A stretch of DNA of 63,008 nt from an uncultured Oscillospiraceae bacterium (GTDB lineage: Bacteria > Bacillota > Clostridia > Oscillospirales > Oscillospiraceae). How positions within the stretch are numbered: the stretch's first letter is position 1; every line of letters starts with the position of its first letter. Shown here one piece after another: positions 24,087 to 31,829 of the stretch. The stretch is from contig CAZLSN010000001.1 of NCBI GenBank assembly GCA_964562265.1, forward strand, positions 1-63,008, read 5' to 3'. The notes under the pieces were generated by a model that saw only the letters and a program-made list of their open reading frames with translations, did not search any database and was not told the origin of the DNA. The position numbers were made by a program, and so were the translations under genes.

Positions 24087-25247
24087 TTACAGCTTGCCTC
24101 TCATATTGCGTTCCATGTATCCCTCATCCGCAAGCCCCTCATGCTCATCAATGGGAACTCTGTTTGCAAGCTCGGGATCGGTATTGTTGCCAAATGCCTC
24201 TCTTATTGCGGCAGCGGCCTCCATCTGTTCGATGCGTACCTGCTCTGTAGCGTACTGTTCCTCACGGCTTTTAAGCTCGTTCTCCTTATAAGCCTTTATC
24301 CTTGCGATAACGTCCTTTTTGCGGTCCTTCTCCGCTTTTTTAACTGAGGAGGGCAGCTCCGACATATCCGCAAACCACTCACAGCTCTCACCGACCGATA
24401 CCTTGTGAGTCTCTCTGTCGATATGGGTGGGGAGAGTCTCAAAGGATATGCCGTCCTTGCGGAAATCGAGGGACAGCAAAAGACCGTTATCGGTGTCCTT
24501 TTGCGCTCTCTGATAATCCGTATCGAAGATGAAGTTGCCGAGTGAGTAGAAAACAGGCTTTGCACCGAAGTATTCATAGCCCTGAACGACATGGGGATGA
24601 TGCGCAACGACGGCGTCACAGCCCCAGCGCAGATAACGCTTAAACTGCCGTCTTACCCGTGCGGCGGGAATGTGCAAAAACTCGTCGCCGCCGTGGTATA
24701 CCAAAACGATATAATCCACATGGGGTCTGAGGCTTTTGACGGCGGCTTTGATATAGTCCTCCCTCGACTCATGCAGAGGGCCGCCGGAGGTCTCGTTTGC
24801 GATGCGGTATCTCTTGTACTGCACCGAGAGTATGCCGACCTTGATCTTGTCGCCCAATATGATGCAGCGGGCGGCTTCTTTGACATCCAAGCCGATGCCG
24901 ATGTAGGGCAGGCCTTCTTTTTTGCAGTTATCTATGGTGTCGATGACGCCGATGGTGCCGAAGTCCATCATGTGATTGTTGGCAAAGGACAGCACCGGAG
25001 ACTTGATGTTGCGCTTCACAAAGCCCAGTGCGGCGGTGTTGCTGCGATGGGCAAGACGCTTTTTCTTCGTTACACGGCAGGGGGTAACGGGGCTTTCAAA
25101 GTTTATGATGTTGTAGTCATTCTGAGCCAGAAAGGCTTTGATGTCGTCGCTTAGGGTCTCGTCGTCGCAGCAGCGATCGGCAAAATAGCCGCTGAATGCG
25201 AGATCACCCGTAAAGCCGAGCTTCAAAACAGCTTCTTTTTCGTTCAT
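24087..25247 (-). CDS. CapA/PGA_cap-family metallophosphoesterase-like protein (cytoplasmic, with a charged C-terminal tail)
   Basis: FTGDLAFSG, NFESPVT, ANNHMMDFG, VLVYHGGDEF, VVAHHPHVVQGYE, YSLGNFIFD. No signal peptide or TM. The last ~90 aa are Lys/Glu-rich. Confidence 0.8.
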   Translation of the reverse strand: MNEKEAVLKLGFTGDLAFSGYFADRCCDDETLSDDIKAFLAQNDYNIINFESPVTPCRVTKKKRLAHRSNTAALGFVKRNIKSPVLSFANNHMMDFGTIGVIDTIDNCKKEGLPYIGIGLDVKEAARCIILGDKIKVGILSVQYKRYRIANETSGGPLHESREDYIKAAVKSLRPHVDYIVLVYHGGDEFLHIPAARVRRQFKRYLRWGCDAVVAHHPHVVQGYEYFGAKPVFYSLGNFIFDTDYQRAQKDTDNGLLLSLDFRKDGISFETLPTHIDRETHKVSVGESCEWFADMSELPSSVKKAEKDRKKDVIARIKAYKENELKSREEQYATEQVRIEQMEAAAAIREAFGNNTDPELANRVPIDEHEGLADEGYMERNMRGKL

Positions 25248-26383
25248 GCCTTGCCACCTCCGACCGATCTGTGATCCGCCTCGTATATGGAATCCATGTT
25301 TTTGTAGGCATAGAGCATGCCGTTATATGACATTATCTGAGGTGCAACGCACTGAGGTTGAGCGTTGCCCTCGACAAAGACCCAGCCCTTTTCGCTGTAT
25401 GCCAGATCCCAGCCGACAAAGCGCACCTGCGGAAGCGTATCCGCAAGGCGGCAGATGAGCTTTTTGACCTCGTCCCACTGCGGGATATTCAGTCCCACGA
25501 GCTGGATCTTGCTGTCCGGATGATAGATGTAGCGATGGCCGAGATAGTCTCTGCCGCAGTCGCATATAACACCGGTGTCGAAGTCTATCCTTGCGGATAT
25601 TCCGCCACCCGACATATTATCGGTGTGACTGCCGCCGGAGCCCATGCGCAGGAAGCACCACTGTGTGTGGGTCTCACCGCTGTCACTGTGATAGGTGACT
25701 ATGCGGACGGTGTTGACCGAATCGGGGTGGATCTCGGCGATCTCCTTGCCCTGAACGATAAGCTCCTCAAGAACACAGGCACCGTTGAATATGATGATCT
25801 CAAACAGATCCTCGTCGGATTCGTAGTTCTTGCGGTCGTAGATTTTGATGCCTCTGCCGCCGTAGTCCTGAGCGGGCTTGTAGATGAAGCGGGGGTGCTT
25901 TTCGAGGAAGGCACGGAAGCTGTCAAAGTCCCTGTCATCATAAAGGCTCACGACATCTCTGCCGTAGAACTCACCGAAGATGCGATAAGTCTCGGTCTTT
26001 TGATTCAGGAAATCAACATAGTTGCGGTCGTTGAATTTCTTGTAATACTTGTACTTGTTACTTCTCGTCACGAAGGTCGATCTGCCCTCTCCCGAGAGCA
26101 TATTGAAGCCGTAGATGAAGTATTCCTTCGGGATTATGCCGAAGCGCACCCGACAGCGGTAGATCTTCAGCATCAGTACAAAGTGCTTAAATCCGTGTGC
26201 GGCCTCGGGACGATGCTCCGCAATTGCGGCATTTGCTGCCTCACGGAACTTTTTCAGTCCGAAGAAGCGTCTGTAAATCTTGACGCCGACTCTGTATGTT
26301 CCCGCAAGCACATCCCTTATTATGCCCGATTTCGGAGCGATTGCGGAAACTGCTCTGGCAAGCTTTCTTATAAATCTTTTCAT
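25244..26383 (-). CDS. ATP-grasp ligase, 'sugar-transfer associated ATP-grasp' type (PF14397-like), copy 1
   Basis: 379 aa. FIYKPAQDYGGRGIKIYD, NTVRIVTY, GGISARIDFDTGV, YHPDS, FVGWDLAYSEKGWVFVEGNAQP. ATGA overlap with the CapA-like gene. Confidence 0.7.
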   Translation of the reverse strand: MKRFIRKLARAVSAIAPKSGIIRDVLAGTYRVGVKIYRRFFGLKKFREAANAAIAEHRPEAAHGFKHFVLMLKIYRCRVRFGIIPKEYFIYGFNMLSGEGRSTFVTRSNKYKYYKKFNDRNYVDFLNQKTETYRIFGEFYGRDVVSLYDDRDFDSFRAFLEKHPRFIYKPAQDYGGRGIKIYDRKNYESDEDLFEIIIFNGACVLEELIVQGKEIAEIHPDSVNTVRIVTYHSDSGETHTQWCFLRMGSGGSHTDNMSGGGISARIDFDTGVICDCGRDYLGHRYIYHPDSKIQLVGLNIPQWDEVKKLICRLADTLPQVRFVGWDLAYSEKGWVFVEGNAQPQCVAPQIMSYNGMLYAYKNMDSIYEADHRSVGGGKA

Positions 26384-26456
26384 ATTGCGAAAGACCCTCC
26401 GGTTTTCGTGTCAAATATGTTTTTTGTTTTCGATAAGCATAAGATGCTAAATATAC

Positions 26457-30366: not shown

Positions 30367-30377
30367 GGAGGTGCCGT

Positions 30378-31829
30378 ATGGATAACAATAAGGCACTGAT
30401 CTTGGACGGCGTTTCCGTCAGATACCGCAAGGCGGACTCCCGCTCCGCCGCATCGATAATAAAACGCCTTTTCGGTCGGGAGAAAAAATCCTCCACCTTC
30501 TGGGCATTGAAGCGGGTGTCGTTTGAGCTTGAAAAGGGCGATATGCTGGGCGTCATCGGCAAAAACGGAGCGGGCAAGTCCACACTCATGAAGGCGATCT
30601 CCGGCACCCTTGCCCCTGCAGCGGGCGATATTAAGCGCAACGGCAAGCTCTGCGCCCTGCTGGAGCTTTCCGCAGGCTTCGACAAGGAGATGACGGTCAA
30701 GGAGAATGTCTATCTCCGTGCCGCACTTCTGGGCTATTCACATGAGTTTATCGACTCGAAGTACGACGAGATCATAGACTTTGCGGATATGCGGGAGTTT
30801 CAGGATAACCCCTTCCGCACCCTGTCCTCCGGCATGAAGTCGAGGATAGCCTTTGCGATAGCAAGCCTTGTTGAGCCGGATATTATAATCCTCGACGAGG
30901 TTTTCGCGGTCGGTGACGGCGACTTTAAAAAGAAGAGCCGTGAGCATATGCAGAAGATCCTGTCCGACGGCAAGACCACGGGACTTATGGTCTCGCATTC
31001 GCTGGGCAGCGTAAGAAGGCAGTGCAACAAGGTGCTGTGGCTGGATAAGGGACGCATGGTCATGTTCGGCGATCCGAACGAGGTCTGCGACGCCTATGAG
31101 AAATATCTTGAGGACGGCGTTCTGCCGCAGACGGAATCCATTAAGGCGGCGAAGAAAATGCCGCCGATAAAGCCCAAACACAACAAGGGCAAGATAACAG
31201 CCGAGATACTGCTGTTTTTGTCCCTAATTCTGATAGCTGCGTTCGGCGGCTTTATCTGGGCGCAGTACGATCTTTTCAAGGCCTACGGTCTTGCACACGA
31301 GCATTCGACCGAGGAGCTTTTGGGCTATGCGGATAATTACCACAACTTCATTTACGACAGTCTGAAAACAGACCCCGACACCTGGGATTACAGCATTTTC
31401 AAGGATTCGTCCGCAGCGGTCATAAACGGCAGCCTGAGCTGTGACGACGTGGCAAAGGCGGTACTTGAGGAGGCAGGGGTTGACCCCGGGGACGAAAATT
31501 ATGAGCTGTGTGTTGCCGCGGCAAAGATCGAGGCGATAAAGCATGTCCACATGGCAAGGCTCGACAACCTTGTTATAGAGATGCGTCAGGGCTTTGCCCT
31601 CGAACCCGAGGGCGGGTACCGCAGCATACTGGTCTACTCCTATGCCCATTACGACCGCTTCTACGATCTTGAGGCGGAATGTGACGCAGAGGTGAAGGAG
31701 GTCATTGAGGACATTCGTGAGCTGCTGCGTGAAAGGGAAGAGCCGGAAACCCTTGCCGATGAGGTCTGGAGCTACTACACCTCCGAAAAGGTCTACCTCG
31801 AAGCCTACTATTTCATCCGGCTCCGCTGA
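30378..31829 (+). CDS. tagH: Polymer-export ABC ATPase (TagH/Wzt-like) with a C-terminal TM plus ~185-aa extracytoplasmic extension
   Basis: Walker A GKNGAGKST, signature LSSGMKSR, Walker B IIILDE. A TM (ILLFLSLILIAAFGGFIWAQY) and an acidic helical domain follow. Confidence 0.82.
   Translation: MDNNKALILDGVSVRYRKADSRSAASIIKRLFGREKKSSTFWALKRVSFELEKGDMLGVIGKNGAGKSTLMKAISGTLAPAAGDIKRNGKLCALLELSAGFDKEMTVKENVYLRAALLGYSHEFIDSKYDEIIDFADMREFQDNPFRTLSSGMKSRIAFAIASLVEPDIIILDEVFAVGDGDFKKKSREHMQKILSDGKTTGLMVSHSLGSVRRQCNKVLWLDKGRMVMFGDPNEVCDAYEKYLEDGVLPQTESIKAAKKMPPIKPKHNKGKITAEILLFLSLILIAAFGGFIWAQYDLFKAYGLAHEHSTEELLGYADNYHNFIYDSLKTDPDTWDYSIFKDSSAAVINGSLSCDDVAKAVLEEAGVDPGDENYELCVAAAKIEAIKHVHMARLDNLVIEMRQGFALEPEGGYRSILVYSYAHYDRFYDLEAECDAEVKEVIEDIRELLREREEPETLADEVWSYYTSEKVYLEAYYFIRLR

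Follow-up and report, generated by a model that had tools for sequence, protein, structure and literature searches.

What does a bacterium build when it keeps two ATP-grasp ligases, a cytoplasmic CapA-like protein and a small nucleotidyltransferase beside genes of the teichoic acid type? The question is raised by a divergent locus of an uncultured Oscillospiraceae bacterium (assembly GCA_964562265.1, contig CAZLSN010000001.1), of which a stretch of 63,008 nucleotides (nt), here called the window, was analysed. One arm of the locus encodes a first ATP-grasp protein (AG1) and a protein of the Pfam family PGA_cap; the other encodes a TagF-like enzyme, a second ATP-grasp protein (AG2), the nucleotidyltransferase, and the permease and ATPase of a TagG/TagH-type exporter (Table 1). 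A first-pass annotation had proposed a polyol-phosphate polymer that is aminoacylated in the cytoplasm before export, as a substitute for the Dlt system. The open reading frame (ORF) map and the Pfam and NCBIfam scans reproduced all seven of its ORFs, with their coordinates and families. With a probability of roughly one half, we propose that the locus is a conserved two-module cassette for making, or for decorating, a teichoic-acid-like surface polymer with phosphodiester links, for equipping it with one or two amino acids ligated by the ATP-grasp enzymes, and for exporting it by the ABC-2 transporter. The chemistry is what we infer; the family memberships, folds, motifs, gene linkage, gene fusions and modularity are observed. 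Cytoplasmic addition of amino acids by ATP-grasp enzymes to a TagF-made, ABC-exported polymer is thus the part of the earlier interpretation that stands as the best-supported reading, while its polyol-phosphate and Dlt-replacement specifics found no support.

The association of the core genes is conserved far beyond chance. For the sample, 80 loci with an AG1 relative, each from a different GTDB species, were scored with the window proteins over ±10 kb; 24 species carry AG1 orthologs (at least 360 bits, 47–92% identity) and 56 loci carry distant PF14397 members. All five core genes (AG1, PGA_cap, TagF-like, AG2 and nucleotidyltransferase) lie within this distance at 16 of the 24 ortholog loci and at none of the 56 distant ones. 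PGA_cap is found directly downstream of AG1 in 22/24 ortholog loci, the two exceptions being an early contig end and a double ATP-grasp fusion, as against 3/56 distant loci (4/56 with any PGA_cap gene). The TagF-like gene is present at 18/24 versus 1/56 loci, AG2 at 19/24 versus 2/56, the nucleotidyltransferase at 17/24 versus 0/56, and a TagH-like ATPase (at least 150 bits) at 14/24 versus 1/56. The expectation in the first-pass annotation that the ATP-grasp genes keep company with TagF-like, CapA-like and nucleotidyltransferase genes in relatives is therefore borne out, and an ABC-2 exporter is usually present; in Oscillospiraceae-type loci the TagH-like ATPase follows the nucleotidyltransferase gene in a window-like order.

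The carriers comprise Oscillospiraceae, rumen Eubacterium, Emergencia, Christensenellaceae, Anaerovoracaceae, Lachnospiraceae, Mogibacterium, uncultured Bacilli and Enterococcus olivae, the last of which has a compact five-gene operon without an exporter. Catalytic motifs are intact in all five core enzymes at identities of 39–91%. AG1 (47–92%) and AG2 (42–82%) are each more conserved across hosts than they are to each other (26%), and therefore diverged long ago; judging from their sequences, they presumably do different jobs. The PF14397-like family as a whole comprises 9,141 clusters at 50% identity (E≤1e-3). ATP-grasp paralogs are grouped in twos to fives at the loci of its distant members, and only these distant relatives were found on plasmids, with none on phages. 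Loci L029, L037, L044, L045, L051, L054, L059, L062, L066, L067, L069, L073, L076, L077 and L079 hold three to five ATP-grasp paralogs without a PGA_cap or TagF-like gene, which looks like a different, multi-ligase system.

Two modules can be distinguished within the cassette. The TagF-like, AG2 and nucleotidyltransferase genes are always found together, and the other unit consists of AG1 and PGA_cap. In the closest GTDB species (L006), which is 86% identical in nucleotide sequence over window positions 22702-26491, AG1, PGA_cap, moaA and MOSC are intact, and synteny with the window stops inside the intergenic region (L006 1-10000 compared with the window from 26491). Beyond the break lie unrelated genes (DUF4234, an NTPase and GDSL+DUF4358); the plus arm is deleted or moved in this species. 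Masked sequence was rejected as the cause, as there are no N runs and the unrelated genes occupy the site. In other gut Oscillospiraceae, the same site between moaA/MOSC and TagGH holds a 764-amino-acid (aa) ATP-grasp protein and an AlaDh_PNT-family enzyme in place of AG1 and PGA_cap, together with an additional 671-aa ATP-grasp protein. The AlaDh_PNT enzyme might, as a speculation, form an opine-type (carboxyethyl) modification. The AG1 and PGA_cap arm is a swappable tailoring module.

The genomic context in relatives points to a glycopolymer that contains phosphodiesters, is exported and attached to the wall, and carries a peptide, probably with D-residues. In Mogibacterium (L027), PGA_cap is fused to an ATPgrasp_ST domain, and the locus also holds two LicD proteins, a third ATP-grasp protein and a secreted NlpC/P60+SH3+fn3 protein. 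An LCP ligase adjoins the exporter in Eubacterium L014, and L088 contains an ATPgrasp_ST–GT2 fusion as well as a GT2–Glyphos_transf fusion, which is how teichoic-acid-like capsule polymerases are built. L090 encodes Ddl, a MurF-like–LRR_5 protein, a glutamate racemase and a transglutaminase-fold protein in the interval from PGA_cap to the ABC exporter; L004 has a glutamate racemase beside the exporter and two transglutaminase-fold proteins. The racemase genes by the exporter in L004 and L090, and the Ddl and MurF-like ligase of L090, are counted in favour of a D-amino acid in the product. CotH, GH18 and transglutaminase-fold genes occur near some cassettes. A 942-aa fusion of ATPgrasp_ST with a TupA-like ATP-grasp domain is encoded a few kb from the cassette of a rumen Eubacterium metagenome-assembled genome (L021), and L022 and L026 have ORFs of similar size at this position, which are candidate equivalents. 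Two further candidates for clues to the substrate were set aside: an AMP-binding gene that follows TagH in relatives, considered as a DltA analogue, resembles long-chain fatty-acid CoA ligases and is missing from the window, and neighbouring transporter and ThrRS genes are uninformative as to the amino acid.

Both ligases belong to PF14397 (ATPgrasp_ST), which is the best family for each (gathering threshold 31.4 bits); the next family, YheCD, stays below its threshold. The motif blocks noted earlier as common to the two proteins are indeed present in both in spite of their low pairwise identity. A placement among carboxylases or another unrelated ATP-grasp family was rejected, because PF14397 is the best Pfam match by far and the top folds are amino-acid and peptide ligases. 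The AlphaFold 2 (AF2) model of AG1 has a predicted local distance difference test score (pLDDT) of 82, and its nearest folds are ArgX/LysX, RimK, GshB, DcsG and Ddl; D-Ala-D-Lac ligases are also among the structural neighbours. Compared with RimK, LysX/ArgX and GshB, AG1 shows 10–17% identity and template modelling (TM) scores of ~0.4–0.55, and has an extra helical N-terminal region of ~110–140 aa. AG1 contains no hydrophobic segment and is cytoplasmic. Residues K169, E206/E207, R246, D326, E338 and N340 are invariant in 13 AG1 orthologs and fit ATP- and Mg-binding sites, and K138, K144, R224, D305, E317 and N319 are invariant in 22 orthologs of AG2. ArgX/LysX, RimK and glutathione synthetase work by activating the larger substrate at its carboxylate, which an amino acid then attacks. 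Given these structural neighbours and the carboxylate activation typical of ATP-grasp enzymes, a unit that bears a carboxylate and is extended through an amide fits better than a polyol that is esterified. The PDB yielded no sequence match to a PF14397 member, and the searched literature, whose coverage excludes most subscription journals, contained neither a characterised member, in agreement with the first-pass annotation, nor a description of this cassette.

The PGA_cap protein, identified but left unexplained as a CapA-like protein in the first-pass annotation, has a calcineurin fold and no signal peptide, transmembrane helix or hydrophobic segment, which confirms its placement in the cytoplasm. 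Its only relative in the PDB is MslH (8gq9, 5.9e-16), a Ca-dependent epimerase that acts on the C-terminal residue of a lasso peptide and in which the metal is bound by the free carboxylate of that residue (PMC10406935). Catalysis in MslH depends on the dyads His88/Asp91 and His295/Asp11, with Glu44, Asn87, His259 and His261 as metal ligands (PMC10406935). Seven of these eight positions are kept in PGA_cap: D11, E44, N87, H88, D91, H259 and H295 of MslH correspond to D15, E51, N91, H92, D95, H185 and H219, none of which varies among 25 orthologs; D15 and E51 were matched by motif position because the printed alignment begins at residue 84. The eighth, His261, is replaced by Gly187, with an invariant Glu189 nearby. 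No lasso-peptide genes were found near PGA_cap, and neither CapB (Mur-ligase-type) nor CapC is encoded in the locus or the window. By analogy with MslH, we propose that PGA_cap may be an epimerase of a C-terminal aminoacyl residue. CapA itself has been proposed as the epimerase of poly-gamma-glutamate by the group that studied MslH (PMC8179263).

The TagF-like enzyme combines a single catalytic domain with an N-terminal hydrophobic helix. Its best PDB match is the catalytic domain of TarL (8va1, 4.2e-27), with TagF at 1.7e-10, and W117-H118-G121-K122 and H245-P246 are invariant in 20 orthologs; against the TarB, TarL and TarF equivalogs it scores 126, 102 and 40 bits, with cut-offs of 500, 1000 and 550. 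The earlier label of a MobA/LicC-like nucleotidyltransferase holds as to fold and motif, the weak Pfam call being upgraded by an AF2 model (pLDDT 86, predicted TM score 0.85) with a nucleotidyltransferase fold. Foldseek neighbours of the model are CTP:inositol-1-phosphate cytidylyltransferase (IPCT; 2xme), PntC (6pd2), RmlA, MobA and IspD, and residues G9, G11, R13, K22 and D93 of the G-x-G-x-R, Lys and Asp motif are invariant. The protein has no hydrophobic segment and 484 unnamed relatives; its profile has no sequence match in the PDB at E≤1 and no match to the TagD family (PF01467), and its IspD score of 19.6 bits falls short of the cut-off of 27. According to the model, the enzyme is best described as having a divergent IPCT/PntC-like fold that is neither TagD nor TarI, and for this reason the donor may not be cytidine diphosphate (CDP)-glycerol. 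The earlier statement that TagF plus TagGH means a polyol-phosphate polymer is consequently too strong. A carboxylate-bearing donor would have a precedent in CpgD, an IPCT-like enzyme that makes CDP-glycerate (PMC12275187).

The permease has about six hydrophobic segments, and its best NCBIfam model is the galactan exporter Wzm (68 against a cut-off of 380). The ATPase has one transmembrane helix at 277-295, followed by a ~190-aa tail taken as extracytoplasmic, and its best NCBIfam models are teichoic-acid export ATPases (186.7 versus 538 and 173.8 versus 320). From these scores, the pair can be assigned to Wzm/Wzt/TagGH at the family level only.

A pathway can be proposed from these parts. 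The nucleotidyltransferase would activate a common phospho-metabolite X-P to its nucleoside-diphosphate form (NDP-X), probably CDP-X. X is likely a central metabolite, because no enzyme making X-P is conserved in the cassette; candidates would be glycerol-3-phosphate or the carboxylate-bearing 2- or 3-phosphoglycerate and phosphoserine. The membrane-associated TagF-like enzyme would pass X-P to a lipid-linked acceptor or chain, by polymerisation or a single addition. AG2 would then ligate a first amino acid, most simply as an amide on the carboxylate of the unit in the manner of RimK, LysX and GshB, and AG1 would add a further one at the new C-terminus. That C-terminal residue would be epimerised from L to D by PGA_cap through an MslH-type, metal-dependent acid/base mechanism, a step suggested by homology, conserved residues, strict adjacency and the gene fusion. 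Ligation could come before or after transfer. TagG/TagH would export the finished lipid-linked product, and enzymes encoded elsewhere would attach it to the wall. More tentatively, the product could represent a new class of surface polymer, in which a phospho-unit from an unusual, maybe carboxylate-bearing CDP donor such as CDP-glycerate carries a short non-ribosomal peptide made by PF14397 ligases, with a D-residue set by an MslH-type, CapA-like epimerase.

Several observations weigh against this pathway. The window, which lacks tagO, tagA and LCP genes, does not show a whole polymer pathway; the closest species lacks the plus arm at the site, so the arms can exist apart; the adjacent exporter is missing in E. 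olivae and several other loci; the TagF-like enzyme is TagB-sized and lacks the N-terminal domain that the polymerases TarL and TagF possess; and the Ddl, MurF and MurI genes of L090 may do no more than serve ordinary peptidoglycan synthesis. In PGA_cap, MslH His261 has no equivalent, and with 67.1 bits, where the MslH NCBIfam equivalog has a cut-off of 700, the protein is not an MslH ortholog; it could be a phosphoesterase instead. If PGA_cap were a metallophosphoesterase, AG1 would ligate a phosphorylated amine (for example ethanolamine-phosphate, serinol-phosphate or phosphoserine) and PGA_cap would remove the phosphate, a scheme that we consider unlikely. The calcineurin-like fold and the N-H...D and His motifs are common to phosphoesterases such as YmdB (PMC10406935), and the Campylobacter jejuni capsule offers a precedent for a ligase followed by a phosphatase, in which a HAD phosphatase acts after Cj1438C. 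The tight coupling of AG1 and PGA_cap suits either role. Nevertheless, the only characterised PGA_cap-family member found is an epimerase; MslH, the only structurally characterised member, has one metal where active phosphoesterases have a two-metal centre (PMC10406935); and variant cassettes come with D-amino-acid enzymes (glutamate racemase, Ddl) and with peptidases of the NlpC/P60 type.

It is possible, if somewhat doubtful, that no backbone is built at all and that the TagF-like enzyme makes a single TagB-like transfer of a phospho-X-aminoacyl side group or cap onto a glycopolymer made elsewhere. The size of the enzyme and its best score, to the TarB primase model, agree with such a role, as do the separable arms, the E. 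olivae operon, and a cassette in which no initiating transferase or glycosyltransferase was found. Single-domain TagF-family enzymes can also polymerise, however, most loci have a TagGH-type exporter of their own next to the cassette, and L088 adds a polymerase-type fusion inside the cluster. Quite improbable is an ordinary poly(glycerol- or ribitol-phosphate) teichoic acid that cytoplasmic ATP-grasp enzymes esterify on its hydroxyls with amino acids (like D-Ala) in place of Dlt. The TagF-like and TagGH-like genes would suit it, and ATP-grasp enzymes can form esters, as the D-Ala-D-Lac ligases among the structural neighbours illustrate. No dltABCD was found in the window, as the first-pass annotation had noted together with the absence of CapB and CapC, but this absence concerns the window and not the whole source genome. 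Enterococcus normally has dltABCD, and the occurrence of the cassette in that genus makes a Dlt-independent charge modification questionable. In addition, the cassette has no TagD or TarI/TarJ and a nucleotidyltransferase of a distinct, divergent family, the nearest folds of AG1 activate a C-terminal carboxylate, and an MslH-type epimerase needs a free C-terminal carboxylate on its metal (PMC10406935). We see very little probability in a decoration of spore-surface glycans or peptides, or in a small exported phospho-peptide metabolite or cofactor-like tail built by the logic of CofC/CofD/CofE in F420 synthesis. Spore-surface genes of Bacillus subtilis do include the Glyphos_transf protein SpsB, the nucleotidyltransferase SpsI and the ATP-grasp proteins YheC/D, matched weakly by AG1 and AG2, and the CotH, GH18 and transglutaminase-fold neighbours point the same way. 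The synthesis of the F420 tail likewise uses a nucleotidyltransferase, a phosphotransferase and amino-acid ligases. Enterococcus is a non-spore-former, though, and the TagGH/Wzm-Wzt-type exporter, the LCP ligase and the glycosyltransferase fusions all point to a lipid-linked wall glycopolymer.

The two operons stand back to back and share a control region of 370 nt, as annotated earlier, which contains two divergent promoter-like sites found by a consensus scan (Table 1). Both promoters and the ribosome-binding site of AG1 are kept in four other species (L006, L007, L008 and L019). Because the conserved plus promoter ends at 26698, a start of the TagF-like gene upstream of this position is excluded. 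The AG1 and PGA_cap genes are joined by the ATGA overlap described earlier, indicating translational coupling, and the TagF-like gene and AG2 overlap by 89 nt, the GGAG ribosome-binding site of AG2 lying inside the 3′ end of the TagF-like gene. A further promoter-like site with an extended -10 lies ahead of the permease gene. No riboswitch or T-box, which might name the amino acid, was matched by Rfam in the 370-nt leader. Between the two promoters, the window carries an extra ~130 nt (~26500-26640) that is missing from L007, L008 and L019 and is G+C-rich, with runs such as GGGAGACCCCTCCCC. A hairpin directly 3′ of the MOSC gene has a sub-threshold match to an Rfam microRNA and is probably the terminator of the minus arm rather than an RNA gene.

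Table 1. Features of the window and of related loci, with positions, strands and best matches.
Feature	Sequence	Position	Strand	Match or remark
PGA_cap gene	window	24087-25247	-	Pfam PGA_cap 1.6e-48, 165.9 bits vs cut-off 27; 386 aa
AG1 (first ATP-grasp)	window	25244-26383	-	ATPgrasp_ST PF14397 4.9e-48, 164.2 bits; 379 aa; first minus-arm gene
Shared divergent control region	window	26384-26753		two sigma-70-like promoters
Minus-arm promoter	window	26484-26457	-	TTGAAA-16-TAGAAT
Plus-arm promoter	window	26670-26698	+	TTGAAG-17-TAAAAT
TagF-like gene	window	26754-27962	+	Glyphos_transf 1.1e-49, 169.8 bits; 402 aa
AG2 (second ATP-grasp)	window	27874-28923	+	ATPgrasp_ST 1.3e-39, 136.5 bits; 349 aa
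Small nucleotidyltransferase	window	28925-29536	+	NTP_transf_3 6e-6, exactly at gathering score, N-terminal 60 aa only; 203 aa
Promoter-like site ahead of permease gene	window	29526-29554		extended -10; consensus scan
ABC-2 permease (TagG/Wzm-type)	window	29599-30366	+	ABC2_membrane 4.1e-13; 255 aa
TagH/Wzt-type ABC ATPase	window	30378-31829	+	ABC_tran 5.4e-24; 483 aa
Protein with Thr-Pro repeat linker	window	21732-22430	+	232 aa; N-terminal transmembrane/signal segment
Hairpin 3′ of MOSC gene	window	22568-22635	-	Rfam microRNA 35.9 bits vs gathering 82
YegS-type lipid kinase	window	31866-32753
Glycosyltransferase–lipid kinase fusion	window	39805-41766	+	MGDG_synth-like + DAGK_cat; 653 aa
Second locus: Acyl_transf_3	window	43470-44435	-
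Second locus: Glyphos_transf, stronger	window	46655-47809	-	1.6e-75
Second locus: Wzx-type flippase	window	47812-49104	-
Second locus: GT2	window	49101-50081	-
Second locus: two O-antigen-ligase-like paralogs	window	50188-51669 and 51691-53163	-
Variant cassette	L086 and L087, gut metagenome contigs	~2286-12902		at moaA/MOSC site; AlaDh_PNT enzyme 327 aa, below alanine dehydrogenase cut-off
ATPgrasp_ST + TupA-like fusion	L021	1330-4158		942 aa
MurF-like–LRR_5 (BspA-type) protein	L088	3008-5005		665 aa; adjoins cassette variant
MurF-like–LRR_5 (BspA-type) protein	L090	13255-16221		988 aa; adjoins a different cassette variant; between Ddl and glutamate racemase

The moaA and MOSC genes, which the first-pass annotation had placed in the minus arm, were rejected as members of the system. 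They flank the locus in one Oscillospiraceae clade only, also flank the variant cassette without PGA_cap, and are missing from the Enterococcus, Lachnospiraceae and Eubacterium versions. The YegS-type lipid kinase was rejected as well, having no homolog in any related locus. A second gene in the window with a lipid-kinase domain encodes a fusion with a glycolipid glycosyltransferase. The scan of the window ORFs, which took in all those of at least 300 aa except two opposite-strand overlaps of prs and AG1, gave no dlt, tagO, tagA or tagD gene, and TarI/TarJ, TagB and LCP genes were likewise not found in the window. A second surface-glycopolymer locus occupies positions 43470-53163 (-) and could be a source of acceptor polymer for the cassette. 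At 21732-22430 (+), a protein without a Pfam family combines an N-terminal transmembrane or signal segment with a Thr-Pro repeat linker.

Wall teichoic acids and related polymers shape cell charge, phage recognition, immune signalling and antibiotic tolerance. To our knowledge, the only well-known route by which amino acids reach these polymers is Dlt, which acts outside the cell. Most likely, the known part of the present system is the synthesis of a teichoic-acid-type polymer and the new part is its cytoplasmic tailoring chemistry, which is undescribed for wall polymers in the searched literature. If the proposed route is correct, a cytoplasmic pathway of ATP-grasp ligases and an epimerase would be a new tailoring chemistry in Clostridia that are abundant but poorly studied in the gut and rumen, and in at least one Enterococcus. 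Two large families, PF14397 with its ~9,000 clusters at 50% identity and the cytoplasmic PGA_cap proteins, would each gain a first function, and the proposal of CapA/PgsA as the long-sought poly-gamma-glutamate epimerase would gain independent support. A tailoring arm that is swapped between species is typical of surface-antigen variation, and the compact five-gene version of E. olivae offers a tractable experimental entry point.

Comparison with characterised systems places the cassette beside several of them. Like the wall teichoic acid pathway, it has a CDP-alcohol phosphotransferase of the TagF family in which the WHG and HP motifs are intact, an ABC-2 exporter with a TagH-like transmembrane helix and tail at the C-terminus of its ATPase, and, in one relative (L014), an LCP ligase inside the cassette. 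It differs in that the window lacks TagD, TarI/J, TagO, TagA and TagB, the cassette nucleotidyltransferase has a divergent IPCT/PntC-like fold, and the cassette proteins miss all equivalog cut-offs; no characterised wall teichoic acid locus is known to have two ATP-grasp ligases and a cytoplasmic PGA_cap protein as integral parts. RimK, LysX/ArgX and GshB, the nearest structural neighbours of AG1, activate a C-terminal carboxylate and then add an amino acid, as is proposed here, but the acceptor of AG1, judged from its gene context, would be neither a protein nor a cofactor. PGA_cap shares its Pfam family with MslH and CapA/PgsA, and as CapA adjoins CapB, so PGA_cap adjoins an ATP-dependent amide ligase. 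CapB is of the Mur-ligase type, whereas the partner of PGA_cap is an ATP-grasp protein in 22/24 species; CapA/PgsA is membrane-anchored, unlike the cytoplasmic PGA_cap.

Capsule amidation in C. jejuni provides a parallel for the order of events. The available part of its description presents Cj1438C as a TupA-like ATP-grasp amidoligase that joins serinol-phosphate or ethanolamine-phosphate to glucuronate, followed by a HAD phosphatase that we take to be Cj1435. In that system, as in the proposed cassette pathway, the carboxylate that receives the amide belongs to a growing surface polymer exported by an ABC transporter, the amide is made by an ATP-grasp enzyme in the cytoplasm, and a second enzyme tailors the added group. 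As it is described there as TupA-like (PF14305, not PF14397), Cj1438C was rejected as a characterised PF14397 member, and that part of the description mentions no TagF-like or PGA_cap component; a domain of its TupA-like family is the one fused to ATPgrasp_ST near the cassette in L021. CpgD, of ceramide diphosphoglycerate synthesis in Caulobacter, also has an inositol-1-phosphate cytidylyltransferase as its nearest structure, and its product is a CDP-activated phospho-alcohol with a free carboxylate that is transferred as in teichoic acid synthesis (PMC12275187). Its acceptor is a sphingolipid, and the likeness is one of structural neighbourhood. DltABCD, finally, likewise places amino acids on a polymer of the teichoic acid type, but it does so after export, with a carrier protein and an MBOAT enzyme, and forms esters, whereas the cassette would use cytoplasmic ATP-grasp ligases and probably form amides.

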